Source of the DNA: a virus
Lineage: Duplodnaviria > Heunggongvirae > Uroviricota > Caudoviricetes
Length of the DNA: 33,219 nt
Direction: 5' to 3' (one strand)
Virus record (IMG/VR): IMGVR_UViG_3300046533_000211
Location: 1-33,219 of that record
The notes under the pieces were generated by a model. That model did not search any database. It was given only the letters and a program-made list of their open reading frames with translations, and was not told where the DNA came from. The position numbers and the translations under genes were made by a program. Positions 10,695-23,525 of this stretch are shown piece by piece (the first letter of the stretch is position 1; each line of letters starts with the position of its first letter).

Positions 10695-10864
10695 CGGTTT
10701 GCTGGCCTTCCTGGTGGCGGGAACCACCGCTGGAGGGTGAACGTAAAAACATACGTTGACCTGGCGAAACGGCGAGTTTAAGAGGGGTGGTGTGGTGGTG
10801 CCCACGAAGGACAAAAGCCGCTCTCGGGGCCGCTGAGGGCCGGCAATCGCTACCTGGGTAGCTA

Positions 10865-11357: not shown

Positions 11358-11680
11358 TTGATCACCTCCCCCGGCAGCACGTTCTCGGGCGTGCTCACGC
11401 TGATGCTGAAGGCAGTGAACGGGCGGTTCGGCCTGCCGTCCGGGCGCACCGGGTTCCGTGGGTCCACAGAGCGCCACAGCTCGAACGCTTCCGTGGAGGT
11501 GTAGCGGGTGGCCTCATCGAGGTTGGGTGTGGTGCGCAGGTGGGCCATCATCACCTGGCCGGTGAGCGGCTCCCTTCCGTCACGTGACGGATCGAACTCG
11601 ACCACATACTGCCCGTCGAACCCAGTCACCCCGCCATTGATCAGCCCGACCACCTGGATGACCACCTCAGTGCTGTCCAT
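11354..11680 (-). CDS. Hypothetical protein (108 aa)
   Basis: GAGGAG SD; ends ...RPDGRPNRPFTAF. Confidence 0.65.
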   Translation of the reverse strand: MDSTEVVIQVVGLINGGVTGFDGQYVVEFDPSRDGREPLTGQVMMAHLRTTPNLDEATRYTSTEAFELWRSVDPRNPVRPDGRPNRPFTAFSISVSTPENVLPGEVIK

Positions 11681-12104
11681 CGTTCTCCTCCTCGTTGGCA
11701 GGCTCGGCCAGCCGCGCCAGCGACTGGGCACGGGCGATCTGGCCCATGATCTCGATCAGGCCCAGCATCTCCACCGGGGCCAGTTCATGCTGTGAGATCA
11801 CCCCGGAGCCATCGCCGTTCACGGTCACCTGGAGCAGGCCGAAGCGGTACACCGTGACATGCTCCACGTCGATCCTGCTGGGGCCGATCACGTCGGGCTG
11901 CACAGGCCTCAGCCGCAGCCCGTGGCGCTCCAGCCCCTCCTTGACGGAGTCCAGGTCCTTCTGGCTGAAGCCACGGAAGCTGAGCAGGTCCATCTCGGTC
12001 ATCGCGGTCAGGGCATCCACGCTGCAGACGCCCTCGCGCTTGAGGATGTTGAACGCCCGCACCGTGAGGTCCAGGTCCTCGATCTGGAGCGGCACAATGG
12101 TCAT
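11667..12104 (-). CDS. RNA polymerase alpha-subunit C-terminal-domain homolog fused to an unknown domain (145 aa)
   Basis: IEDLDLTVRAFNILKREGVCSVDALTAMTEMDLLSFRGFSQKDLDSVKEGLERHGL aligns with actinobacterial RpoA CTD ([25 protein letters not shown]...). Confidence 0.88.
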   Translation of the reverse strand: MTIVPLQIEDLDLTVRAFNILKREGVCSVDALTAMTEMDLLSFRGFSQKDLDSVKEGLERHGLRLRPVQPDVIGPSRIDVEHVTVYRFGLLQVTVNGDGSGVISQHELAPVEMLGLIEIMGQIARAQSLARLAEPANEEENDGQH

Positions 12105-12817
12105 CGGGCTAGCGCCTTCCATCGGTCCAGCATCTCCTGCCAGTCGGCCTTCCATCGGGCCAGCGTCCCCTTCCACTCCGCGACCTGCCAGCTGACCTCG
12201 TCCTTGCCTTCCCCTGCGTCACTGAGTTCATTGAGCACATCGAGCAGGTTGGTCATGTCACCAATCACATTGGTGTCCTCGATGTTTGGCGGCTCAGGCA
12301 GCTTGGCCTCGGCCATGATGGCGCGTCGGAAGATCTTGTTCGCCAGCACCCGCAGGATGGCGTGGTCCTCTAGGAAGTCCTGCTGTTCGGCATCGGGCAG
12401 CGGCTCAGCGATCACCACGAGCTGAGCCTTGTCGGTGCTGAAGGTGTACACGCCCTGCGGCCCCTCCTCCTGGGGGTGGCAGTATTCGCAGTCCTCCTCT
12501 GCTCCGGGGTGCATGACGTGGACCTTGCCGCCGTCCGGGCCGGTGAAGGTCAGACTGTCCTCATCGACCGGCTGATGAGTGGCATGCGTGGCAGCCTGAG
12601 CTGGCGGCAACACGTCACCGCCCCATGTCTCCACCTCGACGGCCCTGCGCTCAGGGGTGCGCTCGATGTACTGCGCCGGGGTCACGATGGCGATGCCGCT
12701 GGTCATCTCGGGGTCGATCTCCGGGTGGGTGAACCCACCGTCGTAGCCCTCCATGTCACCATCCGGGTCGTCACCCAGGTCGACGTGCTCCACGTCAAGG
12801 GGTTCATCCTTGGTCAC
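12101..12817 (-). CDS. Acidic hypothetical protein (238 aa)
   Basis: GTG after GGAGGAG; C-terminal 11-aa repeat W..TLARWKA / WQEMLDRWKA. Confidence 0.7.
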   Translation of the reverse strand: MTKDEPLDVEHVDLGDDPDGDMEGYDGGFTHPEIDPEMTSGIAIVTPAQYIERTPERRAVEVETWGGDVLPPAQAATHATHQPVDEDSLTFTGPDGGKVHVMHPGAEEDCEYCHPQEEGPQGVYTFSTDKAQLVVIAEPLPDAEQQDFLEDHAILRVLANKIFRRAIMAEAKLPEPPNIEDTNVIGDMTNLLDVLNELSDAGEGKDEVSWQVAEWKGTLARWKADWQEMLDRWKALAR

Positions 12818-12996
12818 GTCTGCTCCTCCTTCGCAGCCTTCCTGGCTGCCTTGACCTGTGCGTGCAGCTCAGCCCTGGATAGGTGGCGGTTGCATGCACA
12901 GGTGATCGGAAATCGTTTGAAGCGGGTGGCGTAGCCACACACCGGGCACGGGGTGGTCAGCTCCTTGCTGTCGTTACCCCGGACGCTGGTCGTCAC
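12814..12996 (-). CDS. Zinc-ribbon-like protein (60 aa)
   Basis: CPVC...CAC..H; AGGAGGAG SD. Confidence 0.6.
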   Translation of the reverse strand: MTTSVRGNDSKELTTPCPVCGYATRFKRFPITCACNRHLSRAELHAQVKAARKAAKEEQT

Positions 12997-13102
12997 GGTT
13001 CTCCTCCTTGGTTGGTTCCTGGCCCCACAGGATGCGGCGCAGCCTGGATGGCGGGGCGGGCTTACGATGCCGACCCACGTAGGTGTTGGCGTGGTTGCTC
13101 AT
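12974..13102 (-). CDS. Hypothetical protein (42 aa, MSNHANTYVGRHRK...)
   Basis: Manually translated; GAAAGGA SD. Confidence 0.5.
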   Translation of the reverse strand: MSNHANTYVGRHRKPAPPSRLRRILWGQEPTKEENRDDQRPG

Positions 13103-13120
13103 GGTTCCTTTCGGGTGGTT

Positions 13121-13160
13121 GGGTGGGTGCCCAGGAATCGTGATGTCCGGGCACCCACCC
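13121..13160. terminator. Long GC-rich hairpin (terminator or processing site)
   Basis: GGGTGGGTGCCC/GGGCACCCACCC 12-bp perfect arms just after the stop at 13186; no U-tract. Confidence 0.55.
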
Positions 13161-13185
13161 GGTGACTAGCTAGCGCCGCAGCAGG

Positions 13186-13521
13186 TCAGTTCGACCCGTT
13201 GTGGTTGTAGGGCTTGTGGTGATGCACCACGACCGTTGTGTTGCTGGTGTTGAACGAGCCAGCGCCGGTGTTGATCAGGTTGTTCGAGAAGTTGCCGTTG
13301 CCGACGTTCAGCGTCAACGAGTTGCCCGAGAACAAGGACACGTGGTTCCCGTTCACCGTGCCGATCTGGTTGATCGTCTTGGTGATGTTCTGGACAGGAT
13401 GCCCATTGCCCCACTGCGGACCATCGCTCGGTGAGGCCAAGGCCGACCCGGCACCACCAACGGCCATTGCCGTCATGCCGAGGCCGAGCACGGACCCTGC
13501 CACCATCTTGCGTACCTGCAT
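13186..13521 (-). CDS. Secreted Asn/Gly-rich low-complexity protein (111 aa)
   Basis: Signal peptide MQVRKMVAGSVLGLGMTAMAVGGAGSALA; GNGNFSNN / GAGSFN repeats; AAAGGA SD. Confidence 0.7.
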   Translation of the reverse strand: MQVRKMVAGSVLGLGMTAMAVGGAGSALASPSDGPQWGNGHPVQNITKTINQIGTVNGNHVSLFSGNSLTLNVGNGNFSNNLINTGAGSFNTSNTTVVVHHHKPYNHNGSN

Positions 13522-13544
13522 ACTCATTCCTTTCGTTGACCCCT

Positions 13545-13555
13545 GGCCCAGTGCC
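13545..13555 (-). promoter_or_regulatory. Hairpin motif copy 5 (GGCACTGGGCC)
   Basis: Flanks GACCTC-G / A-GGGGTC pair; intergenic, 5' of the SD. Confidence 0.75.
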
Positions 13556-13580
13556 CGAGGTCCTGCCGGGACTGTCCCGG

Positions 13581-13976
13581 TCAGGTCTGTGTGCGGCGTA
13601 GAGCCGCGAGCAGTCTCAGCCCCTCCGGGCTGTACCGCTGCTGTTCGTAGCTGATCTCCCACCGATTCAGGGCCTCGCGCACCAGCCGCTGGGCGATGCC
13701 ACGCCTCTGGCGCTTCGGGTGGACCCAGACGTTGATGTTCCCGGCCTGCTCCAGATCCGAGGTCGTCGGGTAGTGGTTGAGGATGCCGGTCAGGTCACCA
13801 TGCCGATCCCGCATGAGCAGGCAGTCGACAGGCTCACCGGGTGGCGCATCGTGCTCATTGGCATAGTGGCGCTCGTAGCTGATCCCCGGCTGGCCCTTGG
13901 CCGCATACTGGCACGCCTGCGACTCCCAGGTGTAGACCAGGCCCCAGACCATCTCAGGCTCCCATGTATCGCTCAC
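13581..13976 (-). CDS. GNAT family N-acetyltransferase (131 aa)
   Basis: Acetyl-CoA motif A VWVHPKRQRRGIAQRLV; YSPEG. Confidence 0.8.
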   Translation of the reverse strand: MSDTWEPEMVWGLVYTWESQACQYAAKGQPGISYERHYANEHDAPPGEPVDCLLMRDRHGDLTGILNHYPTTSDLEQAGNINVWVHPKRQRRGIAQRLVREALNRWEISYEQQRYSPEGLRLLAALRRTQT

Positions 13977-14185
13977 GCTGCGATCACCCCCGATGGCGGG
14001 AGCGGACCATGCTCACGACGCCAGGCAGCAGCAAACGCAAAGCCTGCGTTCATGCCCGCCACATCGAAGCCCAGGCCGTTCTCGGCAATGTGGGCATCCA
14101 TGGCAGCCTGGAACGCCACCACCTCAGGCAGGGCTTCCCAGGCCGCGACCAGCTGGGCCTGCTCATGCAGGGACTGCTTCATCAC
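13973..14185 (-). CDS. Hypothetical protein (70 aa)
   Basis: GTGA overlaps at both ends. Confidence 0.6.
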   Translation of the reverse strand: MMKQSLHEQAQLVAAWEALPEVVAFQAAMDAHIAENGLGFDVAGMNAGFAFAAAWRREHGPLPPSGVIAA

Positions 14186-14394
14186 GCCGCCCTTCCCCAG
14201 TGCTCACCGCAGTTGACATTCCGACCGCCACAGCAGAACCGAGCCGACTCGGCCCAATCATGCTCAGCCTGCTCGTCGGCCTCAAGGATCTCGCCCACGA
14301 AGTCAACGTCATGCTCGGTCACGGACTCAGGGTTATCGGCCAGTGGCCAGCCCGCCTGCTCCTCCAGGCACAGCACCTCGATCACTCTGATCAT
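14182..14394 (-). CDS. Hypothetical acidic protein (70 aa)
   Basis: ATGA coupling; CCGG..CGEH. Confidence 0.55.
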   Translation of the reverse strand: MIRVIEVLCLEEQAGWPLADNPESVTEHDVDFVGEILEADEQAEHDWAESARFCCGGRNVNCGEHWGRAA

Positions 14395-14546
14395 CGGGCC
14401 GTCTCCCTCGGGACAACATGGCCACAGGTGGCCAGGACAGCATGGACCTTGCCCATGATCTCCACGACCCGGCGGTCCATATGGCACTGCGGACAGTGGG
14501 CGACAAGCGCCAGCTTGCGGGCAGCGTTGGGGCGAGATACTCGCAT
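14391..14546 (-). CDS. Zinc-ribbon protein (51 aa; CPQC...TCGH)
   Basis: Manually translated; GAGGAGG SD; first gene after cassette 6. Confidence 0.6.
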   Translation of the reverse strand: MRVSRPNAARKLALVAHCPQCHMDRRVVEIMGKVHAVLATCGHVVPRETAR

Positions 14547-14572
14547 GATTCCCTCCTCAGGGACCAGTGCTC

Positions 14573-14623
14573 GGCCTGGTGCCGAACTGAGATCATTAAA
14601 CCATACCGGAATAGCAATTGCTA
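14573..14623 (-). promoter_or_regulatory. Cassette 6: palindrome TAGCAATTGCTA, N11, TTTAAT plus hairpin
   Basis: Palindrome 14612-14623, -10 14595-14600, core 14573-14583. Confidence 0.85.
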
Positions 14624-14917
14624 GTCAGGCCAACGACCCAGCAGGCAGTCGCCGCACTTGGCTTCCTCACCAGTGAGCCGCCAGACGCGCCCGCACGGCT
14701 CATGCCTGACCAGGATGCCCGCCATGTATCCACGGGGTTGCTCGTACTCATCGTGGTCGTACATCGTCTCGCCCAGCTTGATGGGTTCCGGGGTGGTGTG
14801 GTCAATGGCGTCCCAGTCCACAGTCCAGCCTGGTGGCGGCTTGCCCAGGAACCCATTGGCGAACCACAGCTCGGGTTCGGCGTGGAAGTCGCACTCGTTG
14901 TCTTGGCGCGCGCTCAC
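14621..14917 (-). CDS. Hypothetical protein ending VWRLT...GRWPD (98 aa)
   Basis: GTGA coupling; C-terminus similar to 17619-18086. Confidence 0.65.
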   Translation of the reverse strand: MSARQDNECDFHAEPELWFANGFLGKPPPGWTVDWDAIDHTTPEPIKLGETMYDHDEYEQPRGYMAGILVRHEPCGRVWRLTGEEAKCGDCLLGRWPD

Positions 14918-15132
14918 TCCAGCACCTCGGCCAGGGTGAACCTGGCCAACCGCAGCGGCTGGCCCGTCGCATCCGCGTGCATGCGGGCCAGGCCCTCCAG
15001 GCGACGGATGAGCAGCAGGTCCCGATGGATCAGCGGCGCGTGCTCACCGACGCCTGGGATCAGCGCCCCGACCATGCTCCACTGGCCATCCGGCTCCTGG
15101 ACCTGCCAGGCGTACAAAGTGTCACCGTCCAT
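14914..15132 (-). CDS. Hypothetical protein (72 aa)
   Basis: GAGGAAG SD; coupled. Confidence 0.6.
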   Translation of the reverse strand: MDGDTLYAWQVQEPDGQWSMVGALIPGVGEHAPLIHRDLLLIRRLEGLARMHADATGQPLRLARFTLAEVLE

Positions 15133-15307
15133 CAGTGCTTCCTCTCGGGTGGGATGTCATGTGCCACCTGCCGCAGCAGCATCGGTACGGCTGGTGGAAC
15201 CGCGTGTACGTCGCGACAATGAAGCCTCTGAGCGCCTCACCACGTGAGCGATAAGCGCGCTTCCAGGGCGTCGGGCAGGGCTTAAGCGGCGTCGGTGCCC
15301 GGCTCAC
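15122..15307 (-). CDS. Small phage Cys/His protein (61 aa)
   Basis: C...KRAY.SR.EA...YRCCCGRWHMTS pattern recalled from phage hypotheticals. Confidence 0.65.
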   Translation of the reverse strand: MSRAPTPLKPCPTPWKRAYRSRGEALRGFIVATYTRFHQPYRCCCGRWHMTSHPRGSTDGR

Positions 15308-15468
15308 CAGTCCACCTCCAGCTGATCAGGGCTGTAGTAGCTCGGGCGGTCCCGGCAGTCCCACAGGACTCCGATGGTGATGGTGCCCTTCGCAAGCACC
15401 TTCACCACGGACCCCTCGCTGGTGCGACCACACAGCCGCACCCGGTCGCCAAACTCTGGTGACCTCAT
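15304..15468 (-). CDS. Small SH3/KOW-like protein (54 aa)
   Basis: Manually translated: FGDRVRL...EGSVVKV...VLWD...YYSPDQLE; ATGA overlap with Ku. Confidence 0.55.
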   Translation of the reverse strand: MRSPEFGDRVRLCGRTSEGSVVKVLAKGTITIGVLWDCRDRPSYYSPDQLEVDW

Positions 15469-16277
15469 GCCGCCTTGCCCTTCACGCTGGCTTCGAGCTT
15501 GGCCAGCAGGTCTGACACGTCAGACGGGGCCACGTCATCGGCCTCGGTGATGTCCAGCTCCACACCTTCAGCCTTGGCCTCGATGAGGCTGGTGAGCCGG
15601 TTCGTGTAGGTGTCCACGTGGGCGTCCTTGTCGAACTTGCCCACCATGCTGGCCACCAGCTTCTCGGCCATGTCCAGTTCGGCGGCACTGTACTCAGCAC
15701 CCAGGCCGGGGACAGTGGCCTCACGGACCTCATCGGCCCAGCGCAGGGTGTGCAGGACCAGAACGCCCTCCACGACCCGGATGGCAGCGATGTGGGTCTT
15801 GGCCCTCATGGTGAACTCGGCAATCGCCACCAGCCCGCTGGACGCCATTGCGTTGGCAAGCAGGGCATACGCCTTGGAGGGCCGCACGGTTTTCTCGCTG
15901 CCGACCTTCCCACCACCCAGGTAGTAGCTGTCCTCGAACATGATGGGGTCGATCTCGGACTGGTCCACGAACTGCAGGATCTCGATCTGCTTCCCACGCT
16001 CGCCCTCCAGCTGGGCCAGATCATCCTCGGTGATGGTGACCAGGCTGCCGCCCACCTCAATGCCCTTGACGATGTCGCCGTAGGCCACATCCTCGCCGCA
16101 TTCCTTGCAGACGCGCTTGAGTGAGATGCCGCCCATGCAGGTCGGGCCGAGTGACCCTGGCCGAGCATGGTGCTGGTGGAAGCTGACATCGTGGTTATCG
16201 GTCGCCTTATAGAGGGCGACTGGGAACTGGACCAGCCCGAAGCCGAGCTGCCCCGTCCAGGTGCTGCGCATTGCCAT
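15465..16277 (-). CDS. ku: Ku DNA end-binding protein (NHEJ / Mu Gam-like)
   Basis: RSTWTGQLGFGLVQFPVALYKAT, CKECGEDVAYGDIVKG, EIDPIMFEDSYYL, LVLHTLRWADEVR. Confidence 0.95.
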   Translation of the reverse strand: MAMRSTWTGQLGFGLVQFPVALYKATDNHDVSFHQHHARPGSLGPTCMGGISLKRVCKECGEDVAYGDIVKGIEVGGSLVTITEDDLAQLEGERGKQIEILQFVDQSEIDPIMFEDSYYLGGGKVGSEKTVRPSKAYALLANAMASSGLVAIAEFTMRAKTHIAAIRVVEGVLVLHTLRWADEVREATVPGLGAEYSAAELDMAEKLVASMVGKFDKDAHVDTYTNRLTSLIEAKAEGVELDITEADDVAPSDVSDLLAKLEASVKGKAA

Positions 16278-16300
16278 GATGATTCCTTTCGATCGGGGCT

Positions 16301-16353
16301 GGCCTGGTGCCTGCCCTCCTGGTCATTAAAGCACAGCGGGCTAGCAATTGCCA
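16301..16353 (-). promoter_or_regulatory. Cassette 7 upstream of ku
   Basis: AATTGCTA 16342-16349, N11, TTTAAT 16325-16330, core 16301-16311. Confidence 0.85.
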
Positions 16354-16372
16354 GCCCACTGCGGGTGATTCG

Positions 16373-16822
16373 TCAGGCGCAATCGCCTGCGTGCTGGGTG
16401 AAGCAGCGCGAGCAGGTGGAGGGCCAGCGCGGCTCCTCTGCCTTGCCCTGACCGAGCGTGCGGAGCTGCCTGGTCCCTACGGGTGAGGTCACGGAGATCT
16501 CGCGGTTGATCTTGGCCAGCTCGGACAGGTGGGCCATGACCGCCCCACGCAGCCCCGGTGACATGTGCCCGGAAGCGAGCAGGTGCCGCAGCGCCAGCGC
16601 CACGTTGCGGGCATGATCTGGCCCGGTGGGCACCCGGCCCTGGAGCACATGCGCCCACTCGTTACGGCGCGCTCTCACGTTGCTCTCGGTGGTGTCTCCC
16701 AGCTCAGCGATCTCCGCATAGGTGAAGCCTGCATCGAGCGCCTGGAGGATCTCGGACAGCCGCAGGTTCGAGCAGTTACGTCCGAGCGTTTCCAGCTCAG
16801 CGGCCTGTGTGGGTGTGTACAT
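16373..16822 (-). CDS. HTH-containing protein with C-terminal CxxCFxxHxGxC motif (149 aa)
   Basis: GFTYAEIAELGDTTESNVRARR HTH; ends CSRCFTQHAGDCA. Confidence 0.7.
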   Translation of the reverse strand: MYTPTQAAELETLGRNCSNLRLSEILQALDAGFTYAEIAELGDTTESNVRARRNEWAHVLQGRVPTGPDHARNVALALRHLLASGHMSPGLRGAVMAHLSELAKINREISVTSPVGTRQLRTLGQGKAEEPRWPSTCSRCFTQHAGDCA

Positions 16823-16849
16823 GCGTGACGACTCCAATCGTTGTGGTCT

Positions 16850-16899
16850 GGCCTGGTGCCAGTTCCTGTGAATCAGGATAGCACACCCCACTAGCAATT
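16850..16899 (-). promoter_or_regulatory. Cassette 8
   Basis: AATTGCTA 16892-16899, N11, TATCCT 16875-16880, core 16850-16860. Confidence 0.85.
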
Positions 16900-16902
16900 A
16901 AA

Positions 16903-16932
16903 GAGGCCCCCCGGAGTTAACCGGGGGGCCTC
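16903..16932 (-). terminator. Intrinsic terminator
   Basis: GAGGCCCCCCGG/CCGGGGGGCCTC 12-bp stem followed by TTTAATT on the minus strand. Confidence 0.85.
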
Positions 16933-16948
16933 AGTGGGGCTGCTCCTC

Positions 16949-17113
16949 TCACATGTAATAGGCATTGTTCTCTGGGTCAGTGCCTGCGCCCTGGACCTCC
17001 ACATAGGCAGCGGGGAGGAAGTCATTCCAGCCAGCTGCTGCGTCGCGCTCGGCGAGGGCTTGGGCGCGAGCGGCCTTGGCCTCGGGGCTGAAGCTCGGGA
17101 TCTTGCGTGACAT
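16949..17113 (-). CDS. Hypothetical protein (54 aa, MSRKIPSFSPE...), apparently monocistronic
   Basis: Manually translated; AGGAG SD; lies between cassette 9 and a terminator. Confidence 0.65.
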   Translation of the reverse strand: MSRKIPSFSPEAKAARAQALAERDAAAGWNDFLPAAYVEVQGAGTDPENNAYYM

Positions 17114-17137
17114 GTCTGCTCCTGGGGGTTCTGGGCT

Positions 17138-17186
17138 GGCCCTGTGCCTGCCCGATACCTAATTAAAACACAGTCGGGTAGGCATT
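17138..17186 (-). promoter_or_regulatory. Cassette 9 (variant AATGCCTA-N11-TTTAAT; GGCACAGGGCC)
   Basis: Same geometry as the other copies. Confidence 0.75.
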
Positions 17187-17193
17187 GCAAGGC

Positions 17194-17340
17194 TCACGTA
17201 GCGGCTTCTGCTGCTGCTGCGTGCATGCAGCGGAAGCACAGGTCGAAGCCTCGGTACGAGGCCAGTGGCCAGCGCTCGTCGCACTGCGGGCAGTGCTTCC
17301 ACGGGAACGGCCCAAGGTGGCCCAGCCTGGTGTCAGGCAT
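17194..17340 (-). CDS. Zinc-finger-like protein (48 aa; CPQC...CFRC)
   Basis: CxxC pairs; short overlap with upstream gene. Confidence 0.5.
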   Translation of the reverse strand: MPDTRLGHLGPFPWKHCPQCDERWPLASYRGFDLCFRCMHAAAAEAAT

Positions 17341-17545
17341 CAGGCGTCCCCAGGTCAAACTCCTCCTCATACATCGGATAGAACTGGCTGAACGGCTCAG
17401 GCTGGCCCTCACTCACACCCACCAGGAACATGGCCAGCAGGCCGGTCAGGTAACCGGCATGGACAGGACTGGGGGCAGCTGCAATGGCCGCGTCGAACTT
17501 GCGGATCTGCTTCTCGACGTTCATGTCGGGCTGAATATTCTTCAC
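17333..17545 (-). CDS. Hypothetical protein (70 aa)
   Basis: GTG after GAAAGGG; first gene after cassette 10. Confidence 0.6.
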   Translation of the reverse strand: MKNIQPDMNVEKQIRKFDAAIAAAPSPVHAGYLTGLLAMFLVGVSEGQPEPFSQFYPMYEEEFDLGTPDA

Positions 17546-17568
17546 ATCAGCACCCTTTCGTTGGGCCT

Positions 17569-17616
17569 GGCCTGGTGCCAGACTGTCACCCATTAAAGCA
17601 CACCCCGCTAGCAATT
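17569..17616 (-). promoter_or_regulatory. Cassette 10
   Basis: AATTGCTA 17609-17616, N11, TTTAAT 17592-17597, core 17569-17579. Confidence 0.85.
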
Positions 17617-17618
17617 GA

Positions 17619-18086
17619 CTAGTCGGGCCAGACGCCCAGCCGCCAGGTGTCGTCGTCACCGAAGGTGTGGACGGGGTGGATCGTCACATCGGTCAGCTTC
17701 CAGACCGCACTCCAGCTCTCGACGCCCCAGTGCTCGTAGCGCATGGTCAGCCCCGGCATCGCCAGCTCGATGACCTCGTAGGGGTCGTTGGTCGGCCATT
17801 CCCTGTGGGCCTGATCCGGGGACATGTTCATCGTCCACTGGCCCACGTCGAGGTCCAGCAGGATGGCCTGGGCGCGTATCTCACTCGGCCTGACGCACTC
17901 GCCGTATCGGATGCGCTGGGTCAGCTCGGTCCCAGCAGCACCCGGCCACATGATCTGGGAACCCCAGACGACCAACGGGTGCAGGTGGCGGTCGAGGAAC
18001 CAGAGCCGAGGTCGGCGCGGTGGCGATCCCTGGAATGTATAGCCGACGAACTGCTCGTTGCTCAGCCCTGCTGGCAGCTCGGACAT
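17619..18086 (-). CDS. Hypothetical protein ending VWKLT...GVWPD (155 aa)
   Basis: GGGAGG SD; C-terminus similar to 14621-14917. Confidence 0.65.
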   Translation of the reverse strand: MSELPAGLSNEQFVGYTFQGSPPRRPRLWFLDRHLHPLVVWGSQIMWPGAAGTELTQRIRYGECVRPSEIRAQAILLDLDVGQWTMNMSPDQAHREWPTNDPYEVIELAMPGLTMRYEHWGVESWSAVWKLTDVTIHPVHTFGDDDTWRLGVWPD

Positions 18087-18313
18087 ACCGGCCTCCCGTG
18101 GTCCACGATCTTCCATTGGCGTGCTTCCAGCTCCAGGACAAGCATCGCCTGGGCGTCCTGGGAGGACTCGATCACCAGATCGGACACCAGGGCCATCGGC
18201 AGCATCCCCTTGCACACCGAGCAGATGATCGCGCAGGCCCTGGTGTTGGGTTCCGTGATATTCCACCGGAAGCAGAAGGCCTGCATCGCCGAAGGGCAGT
18301 CCGCGAACATCAT
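18062..18313 (-). CDS. Zinc-binding protein (83 aa; CSVC...W...GRPVCPSC)
   Basis: Two CxxC motifs. Confidence 0.55.
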   Translation of the reverse strand: MMFADCPSAMQAFCFRWNITEPNTRACAIICSVCKGMLPMALVSDLVIESSQDAQAMLVLELEARQWKIVDHGRPVCPSCQQG

Positions 18314-18315
18314 GA

Positions 18316-18507
18316 TCACCGGACGGTCCTCCAGACCCAGGACCAGCACCGCATCCCGTGGCGGGCACGGATACCGATGGGCCTGTTGTCGACGTACCTG
18401 CGGTTGAACCGGAGGGAAGTCTCCGGGGCATCGTCCTTGCTGGCGGCGTAGCTCATGAACCGCATGCGCCGGATGACTGGCAGGCGACGGCGCAGCTGCT
18501 CCTTCAC
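18316..18507 (-). CDS. Basic hypothetical protein (63 aa)
   Basis: GTGA overlap. Confidence 0.45.
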   Translation of the reverse strand: MKEQLRRRLPVIRRMRFMSYAASKDDAPETSLRFNRRYVDNRPIGIRARHGMRCWSWVWRTVR

Positions 18508-18698
18508 AGCAGCACCAGGCAGCCCGGATGGACAGCCAGCCTGGTGTCGGCATCCACGTCGTCACGCTGCCGAACTTCCAGCCAGAACTCCCCGGCCTTG
18601 ATGGGCTGGTGGCAGCCGACGCAGAGCAGCCACCCGTACATCCCTCGCGCTGGCGCTGGTGGCGCAACATGCTCGTCGAGCGGTTGGTTCATGGTCAC
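18504..18698 (-). CDS. LIM/PARP-like zinc-finger protein (64 aa)
   Basis: CVGCHQPIKAGE...VHPGC; GAGGAGG SD. Confidence 0.6.
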   Translation of the reverse strand: MTMNQPLDEHVAPPAPARGMYGWLLCVGCHQPIKAGEFWLEVRQRDDVDADTRLAVHPGCLVLL

Positions 18699-18874
18699 CG
18701 TTCCTCCTCGAACGCCTTGACTATTTGCGTGCCAACATGATTGGGCCATGGCGATTCCAGCGGCCAGTGCTTGCAGTCCGGGTTCGTACACGACCCGTTG
18801 CCGTCCGACTCATGCTTGGCGATGACATCGATCATCTTCTGGATGTCGGCCCCCGAGCTGAACCTCATAGGCAT
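18695..18874 (-). CDS. Hypothetical protein (59 aa, MPMRFSSGAD...)
   Basis: Manually translated; GTGA overlap downstream; H...CTNPDC...H. Confidence 0.5.
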   Translation of the reverse strand: MPMRFSSGADIQKMIDVIAKHESDGNGSCTNPDCKHWPLESPWPNHVGTQIVKAFEEER

Positions 18875-19032
18875 CGCCTGGGCAGCACGGCGCTGACCTC
18901 ACACCCGGGGTAGTGCTCATGGTGGGTCATCAGGGCATCGATGGAGTCGGCAGCCACCACCAGCCGGGTATGGTGTCGGGTGCCGTCACGGGACATCACC
19001 GTGTAGTGGTCGTGTTCCTCGAACTGGTTCAT
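18865..19032 (-). CDS. His-rich hypothetical protein (55 aa, MNQFEEHDHY...)
   Basis: Manually translated; ATGA overlap. Confidence 0.5.
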   Translation of the reverse strand: MNQFEEHDHYTVMSRDGTRHHTRLVVAADSIDALMTHHEHYPGCEVSAVLPRRCL

Positions 19033-19211
19033 CGGTCATCCTCAGGGATCTTGCGCTTGCCCACTGCCTTGCGGGCAGCGATGTGCCGGTCGTGGCGGGC
19101 CAACTGGGCCGGGAGGTCATCCAGCGCCTTGCGCGCTGCGCGCACCTTGGGGTCCTTCCGCTCCAGCTCATCCAGTTCCCGCTCCAGCCCCAACCAGGGC
19201 ACGTTGCTCAT
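19029..19211 (-). CDS. Hypothetical protein (60 aa)
   Basis: TGATG coupling. Confidence 0.6.
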   Translation of the reverse strand: MSNVPWLGLERELDELERKDPKVRAARKALDDLPAQLARHDRHIAARKAVGKRKIPEDDR

Positions 19212-19636
19212 CAGATGCTCCCGAATCGTCCGAAGTCAGGCAGCACAGGCTTACCGTCAGCTCTGCCCCAGAGGTGCAACACGTTCTCCCTCAGGTTGAT
19301 GTGCTCAGCAGTCGGAACGAACACCTGGTACGCATGCCCCTCCTCGAACACCGCGCGGTGTAACAGCTTCAGATCCGCATAGGTCGGCATCGTGCCCATC
19401 GCTCCACTGATGCTGGCGTGTATCCAGTCACAGCCGAAGTCACCATCGAGGTCCAGGTCGGCGGGCCACCATGACGCCACCACACGACGGCCATCGCGGG
19501 CATCGAACATCCAGGCCTCACCGAAGGGCATCGGTGGACTCCACACCTTGCGATCCAGCCGTGCCCGGATCTTCAGCGCATCGAGCCTGGCACGGCATGC
19601 CTCGATCTCACCTGGGGCCGGTTCCCTCATCCTCAT
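19211..19636 (-). CDS. DUF7694-like phage protein (141 aa)
   Basis: WIHASIS...PTYADLK...HINLRENVLHLW matches the recalled W.HvSvS...PtW...vN.H...LHLW pattern. Confidence 0.6.
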   Translation of the reverse strand: MRMREPAPGEIEACRARLDALKIRARLDRKVWSPPMPFGEAWMFDARDGRRVVASWWPADLDLDGDFGCDWIHASISGAMGTMPTYADLKLLHRAVFEEGHAYQVFVPTAEHINLRENVLHLWGRADGKPVLPDFGRFGSI

Positions 19637-20016
19637 CGTTCGTTCGCCATCCTCACCTGGTCGGCCACGTACTCGCGGCAGTGGGCCAGGCCCTCCTCGT
19701 CAGGCAGGTCAGGCGACTCGATCCCCAGCCGCTCATTCGCCCACTCGAACCAGCCATCGGCCAATGCGGGCATCGGGACGTTGCGCCAGCTGACCGGACC
19801 AATGATGTTGGTCGCAGCCTGGATACGCTCGCCCAGCCCCGCGCACCGCCCGCTCCAGGTGCCACCCTCGTCCCAGCGCTTGTTCGGGACACCCAGCCAG
19901 GTGCCGTCGAGATAGCTCCGGTACGCGTCGATCAGCTGGCCCCACAGGTAGATCAGCTCGTCACTCACGAAGGTGGAGATCTCCTCCATTAGAGCGGGAA
20001 GTTCCCGGTCGGCCAT
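19633..20016 (-). CDS. Hypothetical protein (127 aa)
   Basis: Coupled at both ends. Confidence 0.65.
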   Translation of the reverse strand: MADRELPALMEEISTFVSDELIYLWGQLIDAYRSYLDGTWLGVPNKRWDEGGTWSGRCAGLGERIQAATNIIGPVSWRNVPMPALADGWFEWANERLGIESPDLPDEEGLAHCREYVADQVRMANER

Positions 20017-20189
20017 CACACGGCTCCCTTCGGGGCGGGTCGCAGGTTGAAGATGTTGAACTCGGGCTTGGTGGCTAGCTCGACGTGGTCGGCACAGACC
20101 GCATAGCCTCGGATCACGGTGAGGTGCGGCACCCGCTTGCCGGTCAGGATGAAGCAGACGCAGCACGCGCAGAAGTTCTGGCGGCTCAT
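20016..20189 (-). CDS. Cys-rich protein (57 aa)
   Basis: CACCVC...CADH; GAGGAGG SD. Confidence 0.55.
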   Translation of the reverse strand: MSRQNFCACCVCFILTGKRVPHLTVIRGYAVCADHVELATKPEFNIFNLRPAPKGAV

Positions 20190-20890
20190 GGCCCCTCCTC
20201 GTCCAGGTCCAGCACCCGAGGGTCGGCGTAGACCTTGGGCTTGCGCTCCCACACGGTGATGTCATCGTGCAGGCCCCACCACTGGATCGGGGTGTGCGAC
20301 GCGACCTCGGTCCATTCCTCAGTCAGCAGCTCATGGAAGTCCTTGTCGCCCGTGCAGCCGCCCTCGCCCTCACCGATGTAGATCACCCGGTCGCCCTTGA
20401 ACTCACGCAGGGTGCGCCACGCTGACGGCTCGGAGTACGGGGGCCAGGACAGGAACAGCACCCGGTCGGGGTACTTGTCCACGGTCACCTCTGCGTAGCC
20501 CTGGTTGACCGGCACCCAGAGCGCGCAGTCCTTGTGCCAGACGTTGGCCCCTGGTGCAGCGTCATAGCTCGCCACATCGACGCCCAGCTGCTTCAGCACG
20601 TAGCCCCAGTAACCACTGCCCGCCATCGGATCCAGCAGTGACATCCGCGAGTAGGCCGCGACGAACTGCACCGAGCCAGGGTCCGTGACCGACCAGGCAT
20701 AGCGGCACACGTATTCGTGCCGGTCGAGGTAGTCCTCCTTGAACCCCGACTCGGTCAGGTTCGGTCCGAGCCGGTACCGCGCGATGCACGGCCCCTCCCA
20801 GGGGAACTCGCCCCGACTCACCTTCGTCCGCACATCGTCCCAGTACGGGTTATGGATGGGGATGGGAAACGAACGCAGCAGCTCAGTCAC
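20186..20890 (-). CDS. Class I SAM-dependent methyltransferase-like protein (234 aa)
   Basis: Motif I LLDPMAGSGYW, acidic VASYD, motif IV-like LFLSWPPY, IYIGEGEGGCTGD. Confidence 0.8.
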   Translation of the reverse strand: MTELLRSFPIPIHNPYWDDVRTKVSRGEFPWEGPCIARYRLGPNLTESGFKEDYLDRHEYVCRYAWSVTDPGSVQFVAAYSRMSLLDPMAGSGYWGYVLKQLGVDVASYDAAPGANVWHKDCALWVPVNQGYAEVTVDKYPDRVLFLSWPPYSEPSAWRTLREFKGDRVIYIGEGEGGCTGDKDFHELLTEEWTEVASHTPIQWWGLHDDITVWERKPKVYADPRVLDLDEEGP

Positions 20891-21119
20891 CGCGCTCCTT
20901 CTCTGCAGCAAGCACGGCCCCGATGAGGGCATCGCCCTGCTGGACAACGAGCATCAACTCACGCTCCATGTGACGGAACCGGGTGCCTGGCATGGCCAGG
21001 TTGAGCCGGTCAGCATGACGGGCCAGCACCCCGAAGTCGGCGGCGAGGTCCTCCAGGGTGGCCCTGATCCCCGCCAGGTTCTCGCGTGCGCTCTCGCCAG
21101 TCTCAGTGCAGGCACTCAT
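20883..21119 (-). CDS. Hypothetical protein (78 aa)
   Basis: ATGA coupling. Confidence 0.6.
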   Translation of the reverse strand: MSACTETGESARENLAGIRATLEDLAADFGVLARHADRLNLAMPGTRFRHMERELMLVVQQGDALIGAVLAAEKERGD

Positions 21120-21253
21120 CGCTTCGGCATCCTGCGGCTGGCGACAACGACCTTGACCACGACCAGGGCCATGCACCACAGCATCACGAACACAGCTACC
21201 AGAGCGGCCAGCCAGAGCACGACCTGCGTCATCGTGTTGGAGATCATCATCAT
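21116..21253 (-). CDS. Small single-pass membrane protein (45 aa)
   Basis: VVLWLAALVAVFVMLWCMALVVV plus basic tail; ATGA overlaps. Confidence 0.55.
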   Translation of the reverse strand: MMMISNTMTQVVLWLAALVAVFVMLWCMALVVVKVVVASRRMPKR

Positions 21254-21933
21254 CGGGGTGGGAACGGCAGGACACTGACACCGGTCATCACGCCAGCCTT
21301 GGGCGTGGGCGTCCTGGAGAAGGTGCGGGCCACCTTGACGAACTGCTCGATCAGGTTCCCCGAGATCCCCTCCTTCCAGCCCTCCTGCACAATCTCGCGC
21401 AGCTCCAGGGGCATCTCGCGGGCGATCTCCAGGCCCAGCTGGATCGCATTCCCGAAGCGTCCCCGCATGGCCTCGGGCTGGGGCCACTCCGTCCACTCGC
21501 CCAGCGTCGGGGGCTTGTCGGGGTAGCGGGCCAGTGGGGCACTGACCATCACGGCACGCTCCCCATCGGCACACATCAGCACGATGTTCTCGGTGCGGTC
21601 GGGCTGCTCCCGCACGGGTGTCTGCATGGTGGCGGTCTTGAGATCGACACCACGTGCCTCTGCTTCCTCGAACGGAATGTCCACCATCCAGGCAGTGGTG
21701 ACTATCACGACCTCGCTGGCGAGTGAGACAGCCAGCGTGGCGGTCATCCACAGCGAGCCTTCGTCCTTGGTGTCGTCGTCGTCCATCACCTGGCCGAGTG
21801 GCATCACCCCCAGGCCCCGTGGCCCTGTGAACAGCATCAGAGGCATGATGTCGGCGTCCGGGGCTTCCAGCTCCTCGCAGCACTCGCGCGACTTGGACTT
21901 GGCGTGCTCGATCAACTCGATCAACTCGCTCAC
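21250..21933 (-). CDS. Hypothetical protein (227 aa)
   Basis: GGGAGGA SD; first gene after cassette 11. Confidence 0.75.
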   Translation of the reverse strand: MSELIELIEHAKSKSRECCEELEAPDADIMPLMLFTGPRGLGVMPLGQVMDDDDTKDEGSLWMTATLAVSLASEVVIVTTAWMVDIPFEEAEARGVDLKTATMQTPVREQPDRTENIVLMCADGERAVMVSAPLARYPDKPPTLGEWTEWPQPEAMRGRFGNAIQLGLEIAREMPLELREIVQEGWKEGISGNLIEQFVKVARTFSRTPTPKAGVMTGVSVLPFPPR

Positions 21934-21958
21934 GTGATATTCCTCCCGTTGTCCGACC

Positions 21959-22007
21959 GGCCCGATGCCAGGTCTGGAGTCTAACTATAGCTAGCGCGGT
22001 AGCATCT
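21959..22007 (-). promoter_or_regulatory. Cassette 11 (variant AGATGCTA-N10-TATAGT; GGCATCGGGCC)
   Basis: -10 21984-21989, core 21959-21969. Confidence 0.7.
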
Positions 22008-22023
22008 GACCACCGCTCCAGTC

Positions 22024-22239
22024 TCACACTGGTTCGTGCGGTTTGAAACCGAAATACAGTCGTGGCTGGTGGGTGAACTCCAGCGTGCCCACCACGCCAT
22101 CGGACTTGCGCCTGACGGCCACGTAGGGCGCACCGAAGCCCATCACCTCGAAGTCCTTCTGGAGCTGCTCGGTGTCCCAGGTCTGGCCCTCGGGCTGGTT
22201 GCCCGTGCCGTAGTCCTTGATGTGGATGTCGTCGCTCAT
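22024..22239 (-). CDS. Conserved phage hypothetical protein (71 aa)
   Basis: WDTEQLQKDFEVMGFGAPYVAVRRKSDGVVGTLEFTHQPRLYF; ATGA coupling. Confidence 0.7.
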   Translation of the reverse strand: MSDDIHIKDYGTGNQPEGQTWDTEQLQKDFEVMGFGAPYVAVRRKSDGVVGTLEFTHQPRLYFGFKPHEPV

Positions 22240-22667
22240 GCCATCACCTTCCGACGCACCGGGCTGGTGCCCAGCTCTTGATGCAACGTCAGGGCCTTGG
22301 CCTCGGCCCGTTCCTTGTCAGTGTGCGTGCCGCCGTAGCGCCTCTTGTCACGGGTGCAGATGACGACCTGCCAGCGCGAGCGCCAGCGGTTCCAGGTCAC
22401 ACCCTTCACGTCGCTGACCTTCCCGCGCCCCGGCACTGGGCGCACCTTCTCGGCCTCTGGCGGCGGCAGCGGATGGCCCTCCAGCAGGGCCTTGCGCTCG
22501 TCCTCGGTCTTGCCACCCCAGATCCCGAACTCGATCCCGTGCTCCAGCGCATGATCACCGCAGGCCTGCTGGATCGGACATCGCCCACAGATCGCCTTGG
22601 CCTTCTCGATGGCATCCTTGGTGCCGATGAACCACAGCTCGGGGTCCTCCCCGAAGCAGGCGGTCAT
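22236..22667 (-). CDS. whiB: WhiB-family Fe-S transcription factor fused to an AP2-like DNA-binding domain (143 aa)
   Basis: C-x22-C-x2-C-x5-C plus GIWGGKTEDER; C-terminal SDVKGVTWNRWRSRWQVVI...YGGTHTDKERA fits AP2. Confidence 0.85.
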   Translation of the reverse strand: MTACFGEDPELWFIGTKDAIEKAKAICGRCPIQQACGDHALEHGIEFGIWGGKTEDERKALLEGHPLPPPEAEKVRPVPGRGKVSDVKGVTWNRWRSRWQVVICTRDKRRYGGTHTDKERAEAKALTLHQELGTSPVRRKVMA

Positions 22668-22876
22668 GGTGCCATCACCTGCAACGGGTTGGTCCCCGGC
22701 ACGTACTCGCCTGGGACGAGCTGGTGGCTGGGCTGGCTGTTGCCTGCCATGGCACACAGCCACACGTCGATCACGGTCGTGGGCTTGGCATTGCAGTCGG
22801 GGCCTGTCTGGGCCTGGGCCGGGGCTGCCAGACCCAGCGCAAGGGCCGCCATTCCGGCAAGGATCAGCCGCTTCAT
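22664..22876 (-). CDS. Small secreted protein (70 aa)
   Basis: Signal peptide MKRLILAGMAALALGLAAPAQA; two Cys. Confidence 0.7.
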   Translation of the reverse strand: MKRLILAGMAALALGLAAPAQAQTGPDCNAKPTTVIDVWLCAMAGNSQPSHQLVPGEYVPGTNPLQVMAP

Positions 22877-23433
22877 GAGACAAGCAGGTTGTAGATGCGG
22901 CGCTCGGTGGCTGTGGCAGAGCCGCACTCCGTGGCCTGGAAGCTGACAGCGATGGCCTCACCGGGGTTGATGACCCCATTTTCGAAGGCATAGCCGTGCA
23001 GGTCAGTGCCGACCTGGCCAGCAGCGACGGCTCGGGTCAGCACCTGGCGGGCATACGCCCCGTTGCGCTGGTCGATGACATGGGCCACCTCATGGATCGC
23101 CACGGCCTGGATGCCGCCACAGCCACCCGGCTGATAGCCAGCTGCAATATCGTCCTCGACGCTGGCGTTGAACTGATCCGGGGACAGGTTCGCATAGGGC
23201 AGGTTGAGTGTGATCACCCCGTACTGAGTCCCGGCGACAATGCTGTCATCGCCCAGGTTGGCGACACTGACCTGGATCGGGCTGAGGCCCCATCTGTCGG
23301 CCTCAGCGTTCACCGCCGCAACGAACTGCGCCACGGTGTCCTGGTCGGCTGCCGCCTGGGCTGTGGGTGTCAGCACCTGCCCAGACAGGCCAACCGCGAG
23401 GGCCGTGAGGCCCCCCACAATCAGCTTCCTCAA
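22873..23433 (-). CDS. Secreted zinc metallopeptidase (zincin; 186 aa)
   Basis: TTG start after GAAAGGA; signal peptide ending AQA; HEVAH plus downstream GEAIA Glu. Confidence 0.8.
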   Translation of the reverse strand: MRKLIVGGLTALAVGLSGQVLTPTAQAAADQDTVAQFVAAVNAEADRWGLSPIQVSVANLGDDSIVAGTQYGVITLNLPYANLSPDQFNASVEDDIAAGYQPGGCGGIQAVAIHEVAHVIDQRNGAYARQVLTRAVAAGQVGTDLHGYAFENGVINPGEAIAVSFQATECGSATATERRIYNLLVS

Positions 23434-23456
23434 TGTGATTCCTTTCGCTGGACTCT

Positions 23457-23505
23457 GGCCGGTTGCCATGAGTAGCCCTTCGCGCCAGGACCCGAAGGCC
23501 CTGGC
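23457..23505 (-). promoter_or_regulatory. Hairpin motif copy 12 (GGCAACCGGCC) preceded by a cUUCGg hairpin
   Basis: Core 23457-23467; GCCAGGGCC-TTCG-GGTCCTGGC at 23484-23505 on the minus strand. Confidence 0.7.
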
Positions 23506-23525
23506 ACTCAGGCAGCTCACGTGTG

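Follow-up and report, generated by a model that had tools for sequence, protein, structure and literature searches.

Does a phage arm in which repeated promoters lie beside genes for proteins built from host transcription modules encode one co-evolved takeover machine, or do its elements act separately? The question is raised by a 33,219-nt stretch of viral DNA (hereafter, the window), which is the first 33,219 nt of the IMG/VR viral contig IMGVR_UViG_3300046533_000211 (97,219 nt; hereafter, G000). Its early-gene arm contains a repeated cassette, in which a conserved box, AATTGCTA, precedes an extended −10 element and an RNA hairpin, and encodes a free-standing homolog of the RNA polymerase α-subunit's C-terminal domain (α-CTD) and a WhiB domain fused to an AP2 domain (WhiB-AP2). 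The initial annotation had joined all of these into one integrated system, with WhiB-AP2 as the reader of the box. From the anatomy of the cassette, the identities of the domains, the covariation of the hairpin, and the distributions of the elements, we infer a different arrangement, to which we give about even chances: three separable layers that coincide in a mosaic early-gene arm, rather than one co-evolved machine. The first layer would be a promoter class using the host sigma factor and an extended −10 element, with a box common only to the two closest relatives; the second, a start-associated RNA hairpin located both with promoters and inside operons; and the third, two accessory modulators of host transcription gained in this lineage.

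G000 is linear, about 80% complete, and has a GC content of 64.7%. A megablast search with 11 kb of it gave no match to GenBank phages, among which it has no close relative, and its terminase and AAA+ ATPase recur on dozens of IMG/VR contigs with identities of 52–77% and 56–70%, respectively. As judged by sequence, G000 belongs to a sizeable family of uncultured actinophages, and the comparison of the α-CTD points to a Mycobacterium-like host. No protein with sigma-70 region 2 is encoded in G000, and neither a tyrosine integrase nor a serine/resolvase-type recombinase was found in its 97 kb; the phage is apparently lytic.

Distribution of the cassette and the two proteins

The comparison covered 29 related phage records, of which 13 have a completeness of 90% or more. 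Neither the α-CTD protein nor WhiB-AP2 was found in any of them (0 of 29 each), and plain WhiB domains were present only in G016 and G003. The exact pattern of box plus −10 was confined to the two closest kin, G016 (four copies, three with the hairpin) and G001 (two or three copies), both of which carry the box without either protein in the available sequence. Searching IMG/VR with the exact cassette pattern gave matches in two contigs, and that in L009 (39% GC) was rejected as chance. Between G000 and G016, the genes of the early arm are extensively reordered, and the α-CTD and WhiB-AP2 genes are missing beside the G016 counterparts of their G000 neighbors. Box and hairpin are both absent on the contigs that carry the other WhiB-AP2 proteins (L021 and L120) and on the contig that carries an α-CTD relative (L022); the promoters of L021 are of the form TGn-TAnnnT with unrelated −30 regions. 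The hairpin extends further than the box, since G002, a complete 114-kb genome with terminal repeats, has at least ten leaders composed of hairpin and ribosome-binding site (RBS), all on one strand and in promoter-less intergenic positions, with no match to the α-CTD protein or WhiB.

The co-occurrence across the 29 records is thus negative, and box, hairpin, and proteins are separable, so that the proposal of one integrated system is not upheld. Nor is the assignment of WhiB-AP2 as the box reader, because the box occurs without WhiB-AP2 in the available 60–65% of G016 and G001, and WhiB-AP2 without the box on L021 and L120. Both protein genes are, moreover, distal in operons headed by box promoters (α-CTD under P14619 and WhiB-AP2 under P24319), which poses a bootstrapping problem for a box-reading WhiB-AP2. 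The negative co-occurrence cautions against equating neighborhood in a mosaic phage arm with a functional system.

Promoter cassette

The cassette consists, in order, of the box AATTGCTA, a spacer of 11 nt that is rich in G+C and ends with T-R-T-G-n, the −10 hexamer TAnnnT, 11–14 nt, the hairpin, the RBS, and the start codon. The TRTGn motif is known as the extended −10 or "−16" element. The cassettes of the window are on the minus strand, and every copy in the genome lies on the strand of its downstream gene. A position weight matrix (PWM) built from ten perfect copies with a fixed box-to-(−10) spacing identified 14 promoters in the 97,219 nt of G000 and none in each of 20 shuffles; together with the covariation of the hairpin, this bears out the repeated cassette of box promoter and hairpin described in the initial annotation. 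Information is concentrated in the eight box positions, the T of TRTG, and the T/A/T/T of the −10 hexamer, with ~2 bits each for the T of TRTG and the T/A/T positions of the −10. When the −10 hexamer is placed at −12 to −7, the box occupies −31 to −24, near −30 as had been annotated, in the geometry of T4 middle promoters. Because the positions upstream of the box carry only 0.1–0.7 bits, the box is essentially asymmetric, and its orientation and register relative to the −10 are constant. Its left flank completes a near-palindrome, GCAATTGC, in 5–6 copies, and in ~60% of the copies a TTGnCA-like hexamer precedes the −10 by 17–18 nt and overlaps the 5′ end of the box. The eight invariant bases amid variable flanks imply a specific reader of the box. 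Since no sigma factor is encoded by the phage itself and the extended −10 is near-ideal, we infer that the cassette promoters are read by the host SigA holoenzyme, containing the primary sigma factor, through this strong extended −10.

Ten of the 14 PWM promoters lie inside the window: P4725 (4701–4725, outside the range covered by the initial annotation), P8498 (8474–8498), P10190 (10166–10190, upstream of the AAA+ ATPase gene), P14619 (14595–14619; PWM score, 45.6; sequence checked), P16349 (16325–16349; 43.3; upstream of a Ku gene), P16899 (16875–16899; 43.0; upstream of a gene for a sigma-4-like helix-turn-helix (HTH) protein), P17186 (17162–17186; 23.9), P17616 (17592–17616; 42.3), P24319 (24295–24319; 46.1), and P32543 (32519–32543; 29.8). 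Two of these are variants, with the boxes AATGCCTA in P17186 and AATTGACA, which contains an exact TTGACA, in P32543. An additional variant, P22007 (21984–22012), combines the box GATGCTA with a 10-nt spacer and the −10 hexamer TATAGT. Scans for canonical −35/−10 promoters gave nothing above chance in 10–26 kb or 80–97 kb.

Several copies have distinctive surroundings. A strong intrinsic terminator with 12 pairs (16903–16932, minus strand) abuts the box of P16899; the T-tail of its 12-bp GC-rich stem enters the AATTGCTA box, forming a terminator–promoter junction. At 76600–76680 of G000, a divergent promoter pair shares the near-palindrome TAGCAT(C/A)(T/G)ATGCTA and is flanked by leader hairpins at 76615 (minus) and 76669 (plus). 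The Ku homolog (15465–16277, minus strand; Pfam Ku; E-value, 3e-45) has its own cassette promoter and lies immediately downstream of the gene for the sigma-4-like HTH protein, itself provided with a cassette.

Leader hairpin

The hairpin (GGC-ANNNG-GCC), of which G000 has ~21 copies, has an invariant 3-bp core of GGC/GCC that closes a loop of 5 nt, mostly ACCAG, and an outer stem that varies. In a gapless alignment of 22 copies, two of them from G001, the outer stem covaries: the covariation score is 0.315, as compared with 0.119 for shuffled alignments (none of 500 attains the observed value), and slid controls do not exceed 0.125. The distance from the −10 to the core is constant at 11–14 nt, and the stem begins 7–10 nt after the −10, corresponding to approximately +1 to +4 of the RNA. 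The hairpins have no U-tract and were not picked up by the terminator scan.

All window hairpins are on the minus strand. Leader hairpins follow P14619 (14569–14587), P16349 (16297–16315), P16899 (16846–16864), P17186 (17134–17152), P17616 (17565–17583), P22007 (21955–21973), and P24319 (24268–24286); others follow P4725 (4673–4691), P8498 (8446–8464), and P10190 (10138–10156), and a variant with the core GGCAAACGGCC follows P32543 (32493–32511). Four or five window hairpins have no promoter: those at 7029 (7015–7033), 13555 (13541–13559, intergenic and ahead of an RBS), 23467 (23453–23471), and 23898 (23884–23902), and in part that at 25137 (25123–25141), which follows a degenerate box, AATTGTTA, with a non-standard spacer. 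An Rfam scan of the window gave no family, and ARAGORN gave no tRNA.

On the basis of its covarying stem and its occurrence without promoters, the hairpin is a genuine RNA-level element distinct from initiation, as the initial annotation had supposed in assigning it to a separate layer. Because it is positioned at the extreme 5′ end of primary transcripts and also exists as internal copies, its most likely role is protection or processing of the mRNA 5′ end together with presentation of the RBS, and its conserved loop suggests a protein partner. A loading site for an antiterminator, like boxB, fits less well than such an mRNA-end or translation element, given the 21 copies and the promoter-less copies directly before RBSs. 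Binding of hairpin DNA by the AP2 domain was also considered and rejected, as the ~25-residue linker from a WhiB domain bound to sigma region 4 would not span the distance from −35 to +10/+25.

A further stem-loop accompanies some of these leaders. In G002 (L121, G002:C1:55600-74300), a larger GC-rich stem-loop with a loop resembling a tRNA T-arm (GGGTCGAACC) is located ahead of each small leader hairpin, and an element of the same kind (CCGGGTTCGACCCCCGG) is located at ~23905–23945 (minus strand) of the window, just upstream of the hairpin at 23898. The T-arm-like element may be a tRNA-like signal for mRNA processing.

Free-standing α-CTD protein

The gene at 11667–12104 (minus strand), whose start codon is in an ATGA overlap with the upstream gene, encodes a protein of 145 residues. 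Residues 1–66 constitute an α-CTD (PF03118; 54.8 bits against a cut-off of 23.8; E-value, 7.7e-15), and the relatives P0002 and P0007 likewise score above the PF03118 cut-off. The best matches in the PDB are residues 248–320 of RpoA from Mycobacterium tuberculosis and M. smegmatis (E-value, 1.4e-14), followed at greater distance by those from Streptomyces (4e-12), Bacillus (1e-10), and E. coli (7e-5). The model generated with AlphaFold2 (pLDDT, 84) superposes on 1z3e_B (Z-score, 11.8; root-mean-squared deviation (rmsd), 1.7 Å over 65 residues) and on the M. smegmatis α-CTD (5vi8_T; 58% identity; rmsd, 1.0 Å over 53 residues), so that the earlier assignment as an α-CTD homolog is secure. The equivalents of Arg265, Asn268, and Lys298 (E. 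coli numbering) are retained, and two positions of UP-element contact are altered in the alignment, Gly296 to Ser and Ser299 to Asp. Since the protein begins at the α-CTD, and thus has neither the N-terminal domain (α-NTD) nor the linker, it is not a polymerase subunit and is unable to assemble as one. It looks like the captured 3′ end of an actinobacterial rpoA gene of the mycobacterial type, a donor assignment resting on the PDB E-values.

The α-CTD is followed by a C-terminal module (residues 76–133) predicted as a four-stranded β-meander and a long α-helix (pLDDT, 84–88), which is kept in the seven relatives known, each of them on a short metagenomic contig. Its fold matches are weak (connectase, Z-score, 5.8; Plk4 polo box, 4.5–4.9), and we do not claim a fold. 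In complex prediction with two copies of residues 68–140, the median score was 0.45, as compared with 0.01 for the best of three controls; among proteins of solved structure, 20 of the 30 that pair copies of one chain reach this mark, as against 1 of the 23 that are single chains. At least 20% of the contacts agree between the runs, and the pLDDT of the partner was at least 44. The predictions indicate that the C-terminal module probably makes a dimer, which would present two tethered α-CTDs without an α-NTD. The protein matched no PHROG family, a tblastn search of phages gave 12 records, all Firmicutes phages or unannotated contigs with no actinophage among them, and a search of IMG/VR for related loci gave none. 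We found no description of a free, probably dimeric copy of the host α-CTD in any studied phage.

WhiB-AP2 protein

WhiB-like (Wbl) proteins are central regulators in Mycobacterium and Streptomyces. To our knowledge, most of them have no recognizable DNA-binding motif, which leaves their choice of promoters to be explained; a WhiB domain fused in nature to AP2 represents a Wbl protein with a conventional, testable DNA reader. The gene at 22236–22667 (minus strand) encodes such a fusion of 143 residues, with the WhiB domain at ~1–62, a linker, and the AP2 domain at ~85–135, as supported by Pfam, PHROG, a structure model, and Foldseek. The WhiB domain (PF02467; 72.6 bits against a cut-off of 23.6; E-value, 4e-20) has the ligands Cys4, Cys27, Cys30, and Cys36 and the GIWGG turn, and its ELWF and GIWGG motifs align with Phe17/Phe18/Trp60 of WhiB1. 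Of the four aromatic-patch positions designated AP1–4 (Trp3, Phe17, Phe18, and Trp60 of WhiB1), the protein has AP2–3 (Trp12 and Phe13) and AP4 (Trp50) and not AP1, which is within the norm of the family, at least two with at least one of AP2–3 (bioRxiv 10.1101/2025.06.05.653497). These positions have been reported to mediate binding to sigma-A region 4, which three phage Wbl proteins bound in pull-downs (bioRxiv 10.1101/2025.06.05.653497). With the four Cys residues, ELWF, and GIWGG, the domain retains the reported determinants of such binding, in line with the initial annotation, and by homology it is expected to dock on sigma-A region 4.

The C-terminal domain scores below the 33.3-bit cut-off of Pfam AP2 (PF00847), with 17.3 bits for the whole protein, 21.3 for the domain alone, and 20.5 in the genome scan. 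We nevertheless regard it as a true AP2 domain, in agreement with the initial annotation, because of its homology, PHROG matches, and modeled fold. Its best relative in phmmer, P0014 (E-value, 2e-24), itself scores 94.5 bits on Pfam AP2, and further relatives are P0019 (AP2, 59.6 bits) and P0146 (HNH_3 and AP2, 36.7 bits). Residues 85–139 match the AP2-bearing region of PHROG families of HNH endonucleases (E-values, 8e-8 to 4e-5). The model has the β-β-β-α topology, with strands at 90–93, 98–104, and 109–115 and a helix at 118–132 (pLDDT, 93–97), and the top Foldseek matches are the AP2 domains 7et5, 3igm, 7wq5, and 1gcc (E-value, 0.02–0.2; probability, 0.44–1.0).

No other WhiB and no other AP2 domain was found in G000, and only three WhiB-AP2 fusions were found in all, each on a phage-like contig (P0009, P0010, and P0020), of which P0010 and P0020 are the two besides the protein described here. 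The sole neighbor recurring with WhiB-AP2 is the 71-residue open reading frame (ORF) just downstream (22024–22239, minus strand), which matches no Pfam family and has a 57% identical counterpart two genes from the WhiB-AP2 relative in L021. The WhiB proteins of Cluster F mycobacteriophages, which align over 84% of WhiB-AP2, were rejected as the same fusion; in Yoshi gp69 (L023; 164 residues), the C-terminal extension is Cys-rich, may be a zinc ribbon, and matches neither AP2 nor any other Pfam family, so that this is a Wbl protein with a different extra module. P0011 (106 residues, on a 3.7-kb contig) has a WhiB domain 90% identical to WhiB-AP2 over the first 80 residues and diverges wholly after the linker, with no AP2 domain, reflecting a natural frameshift or truncation or an assembly error. 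The genes upstream of WhiB-AP2 in the same operon (22664–23520, minus strand) apparently encode exported proteins; on visual inspection, the N terminus of one resembles a signal peptide, and the other contains an HEVAH motif reminiscent of zinc metalloproteases.

Proposed insulation of the phage promoters

If the three layers are separable, the two proteins would act on the host rather than on the box. The α-CTD protein would serve as a decoy that competes with the α tails of the polymerase for UP-element DNA, activators, or sigma region 4, and WhiB-AP2 would redirect or block sigma-A at particular DNA sites. By analogy, the link between the proteins and the cassette is most likely to be insulation rather than recognition. 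Promoters with an extended −10 depend little on the contacts of sigma region 4 with the −35 element and of the α-CTD with UP elements; such weak dependence would allow the phage to disturb host promoters while sparing its own. There is precedent in extended −10 promoters, which escape AsiA, and in phages encoding gp67, whose promoters escape that protein (PMC3694059).

Several points weigh against this reading. As G016 is ~60% and G001 ~65% complete, the absence of both proteins there is weak evidence, and G002, having no exact box, informs on the hairpin only. The position of the box, 11 nt from an excellent −10 with TGn, closely matches MotA-dependent promoters of T4, which by analogy suggests an activator, and only in WhiB-AP2, among the proteins found here, is a sigma-4 binder joined to a domain for sequence-specific DNA binding. 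A further promoter class for immediate-early expression was not detected, though ~20% of the genome is missing. For the α-CTD protein, the changes of Gly296 to Ser and Ser299 to Asp weaken a simple role as a DNA decoy, and one of the three complex runs scored 0.01.

Possible alternative readers of the box

The box may require no phage factor, if the cassettes are constitutive strong early promoters for which the host holoenzyme suffices, possibly joined by a host factor at the box, and have spread by recombination as portable modules like the PeSL units of T4-type phages. The information carried by the extended −10, the TTGnCA-like hexamer in ~60% of the copies, the lack of any other promoter class in this arm, the gene order around the cassettes that is scrambled between G000 and G016, and the terminator abutting P16899 would all accord with such a reading, as does the precedent of PeSLs, repeated units of strong promoter, stem-loop, and Shine-Dalgarno (SD) sequence that mediate shuffling (PMC2839356). 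We nevertheless consider it unlikely, since eight invariant bases in variable flanks suggest that a specific reader has been selected for, neither sigma region 4 nor the α-CTD normally sits at −31 to −24, and the box is missing in more distant relatives, which is unexpected for a host-read signal.

A phage reader other than WhiB-AP2 would be a small HTH protein of the sigma region 4 or LuxR type, activating a middle promoter class and leaving WhiB-AP2 and the α-CTD protein as unrelated cargo. The box resembles a −35 element (TTGnTA), with one copy exactly TTGACA. The three HTH proteins put forward as alternative binders in the initial annotation do exist, all encoded on the minus strand: one at 10428–10814 (phrog_686; E-value, 1e-7), with a relative in G001 and a paralog at 42738–42998 of G000; one of 149 residues and the sigma-70 region 4.2 type at 16373–16822 (Sigma70_r4_2; E-value, 0.0016, below the cut-off; no PHROG family); and one at 29502–30152 with an N-terminal HTH_23/sigma region 4-like domain (HTH_23; E-value, 2e-7). 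Neither the second nor the third has a counterpart in G016 or G001. A regulator scan of the plus-strand and small conserved ORFs gave matches only to NUMOD4, ParB_N, TAGT, and, weakly, sigma-4. The best candidate, ahead of the 149-residue protein, is a 58-residue protein (P0163; G000 92367–92543, minus strand; L035:17368-17544), a candidate early regulator with weak matches to Sigma70_r4, r4_2, and RepB. It is 56–57% identical in both other box-bearing phages, and its gene is in the 81–97 kb stretch that has no cassette promoter, and thus outside the box regulon. These HTH matches are, however, under the curated cut-offs, and the 58-residue protein is also 41–50% identical in G002, G003, G008, G024, and G027, which have no exact box, so that it may merely follow phylogeny. 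Altogether, we regard an HTH reader as rather unlikely.

The proposal that WhiB-AP2 unites AsiA and MotA in one chain, in which WhiB holds sigma-A region 4, AP2 reads the −30 box to activate phage promoters, the α-CTD mimic removes host activator and UP-element input in the manner of T4 Alt/ModA, and the hairpins act after initiation, has several points in its favor. The box lies 11 nt from an extended −10 as in T4 middle promoters (PMC2988021), and its asymmetry and constant orientation and register are those of a site for a monomeric activator; WhiB-AP2 retains the determinants for binding to sigma region 4 along with a real AP2 domain, each the only one of its kind in the genome; and the binding of Wbl proteins has been compared to that of AsiA (bioRxiv 10.1101/2025.06.05.653497). 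Box and WhiB-AP2 do not, however, co-occur in G016 and G001 or in L021 and L120, the WhiB-AP2 gene is fifth or later in a box-promoter operon, strong TRTGn extended −10 promoters are normally active without an upstream activator, and the hairpins are independent of both proteins, which makes the proposal improbable. Its fuller form, in which capture of sigma-A region 4 and reading of AATTGCTA at −30 establish a phage-specific promoter class in an actinobacterial host, with the dimeric α-CTD stripping UP-element and activator input, appears distinctly improbable. If true, sigma appropriation would have its first described case beyond the T4-like phages, and a Wbl protein would for the first time have a defined DNA motif.

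Finally, the overlap of the box with the −35/spacer region, a common target of repressors, and the near-palindrome in 5–6 copies might suit an operator at which a plain repressor closes many early promoters together, in the manner of the stoperators of Cluster A phages or the CIR sites of phiC31, but this is very improbable, because the constant register with the −10 suggests a role in initiation, and a lysogeny repressor in particular is unlikely with no integrase or recombinase found in the 97 kb and a left half of 0.1–0.7 bits that leaves the site essentially asymmetric.

Other genes of the arm

The arm carries further cargo. The 804-residue protein encoded at 25978–28392 (minus strand) matches family-2 (PgaC-like) N-glycosyltransferases over residues ~400–690, which is unusual for an early arm. 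Two plus-strand ORFs interrupt the minus-strand arm (28740–29036 and 25185–25484), one with NUMOD4 (E-value, 2e-7) and one Cys-rich; both are kept in G016 and G001 and probably represent relics of homing endonucleases. The genome also encodes three ParB_N/ParB-like proteins, including those at 77844–78967 (plus strand) of G000 and 30139–30954 (minus strand) of the window, and two of the three are adjacent paralogs with 52–58% identity in G016 and G001.

Comparison with known systems

In T4 middle promoters, the MotA box is 12 ± 1 bp from the −10, and about half of them have TGn (PMC2988021). The arrangement described here shares with MotA/AsiA a phage box at about −30 in place of the canonical −35 element, here 11 nt from an excellent −10, as well as a candidate phage binder of sigma region 4, and α-CTD function is addressed in both (PMC2988021). 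It differs in that a single chain joins the candidate sigma-4 binder, of the WhiB fold, to the DNA-binding domain, of the AP2 fold, in that the α-CTD is addressed by a free copy rather than through ADP-ribosylation by Alt/ModA (PMC2988021), and in that the distributions speak against promoters that depend on WhiB-AP2 or the α-CTD protein. General family scans gave no homolog of MotA or AsiA among ~45 proteins, with no dedicated search made. The geometry of a T4 middle promoter in a high-GC actinophage makes sigma appropriation testable in mycobacteria.

For the cassette, the closest likeness is to the PeSLs of the T4-type phages RB49 and phi1, ~100-bp repeats of a strong sigma-70-type promoter, stem-loop, SD sequence, and start codon, which also precede many unrelated small genes in a variable region whose gene order differs between close relatives (PMC2839356). 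PeSL stem-loops, however, are variably placed and act as terminators (PMC2839356), whereas the stem-loop here is at a constant place in the 5′ leader, with no U-tract, a conserved loop, and a covarying stem, and is also present without a promoter and across a wider phage family. The SAS (start-associated sequence) and ESAS (extended SAS) repeats of Cluster K phages are short, number 11–19 per genome, and are located just upstream of the start codons of some of the genes, in one orientation; about half of the SAS have upstream inverted repeats, and they are kept across subclusters before unrelated genes and are tied to translation starts (PMC3203893). Only the start-associated position and the single orientation are common to the hairpins here, as the SAS is the 13-bp GGGATAGGAGCCC rather than GGC-ANNNG-GCC, the ESAS repeats are of 17 bp with variable spacers, and no promoter link has been described for SAS (PMC3203893).

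WhiB-AP2 resembles WhiB7, as solved with sigma-A region 4 (7kif family of PDB entries), and Wbl proteins in general (bioRxiv 10.1101/2025.06.05.653497), as an Fe–S WhiB protein with an aromatic patch for sigma-A region 4 and a C-terminal DNA-contacting extension. In WhiB7, the extension gives the sigma-bound factor its promoter specificity. The extension of WhiB-AP2 is a full AP2 domain, a β-sheet reader of the major groove, as compared with the short AT-hook in WhiB7, and position AP1 of the aromatic patch is absent. The free α-CTD has the same fold as bacterial RpoA α-CTD, with ~55–58% identity to the mycobacterial domain and Arg265, Asn268, and Lys298 kept; it differs in lacking the α-NTD and linker, in a new C-terminal module of ~65 residues predicted to dimerize, and in the changes of Gly296 to Ser and Ser299 to Asp.

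For the reading of three separable layers, the nearest functional counterpart is gp67 of Staphylococcus aureus phage G1, which binds sigma region 4 and disables α-CTD/UP-element contacts at host rRNA promoters (PMC3694059). There, the extended −10 promoters of the phage itself escape, which is the insulation logic put forward here; gp67 is unrelated in sequence and fold, and here a decoy copy of the α-CTD would attack the pathway. If so, the α-CTD decoy would be a new route of interference with host transcription, as against modification by T4 Alt/ModA or the steric block by G1 gp67.

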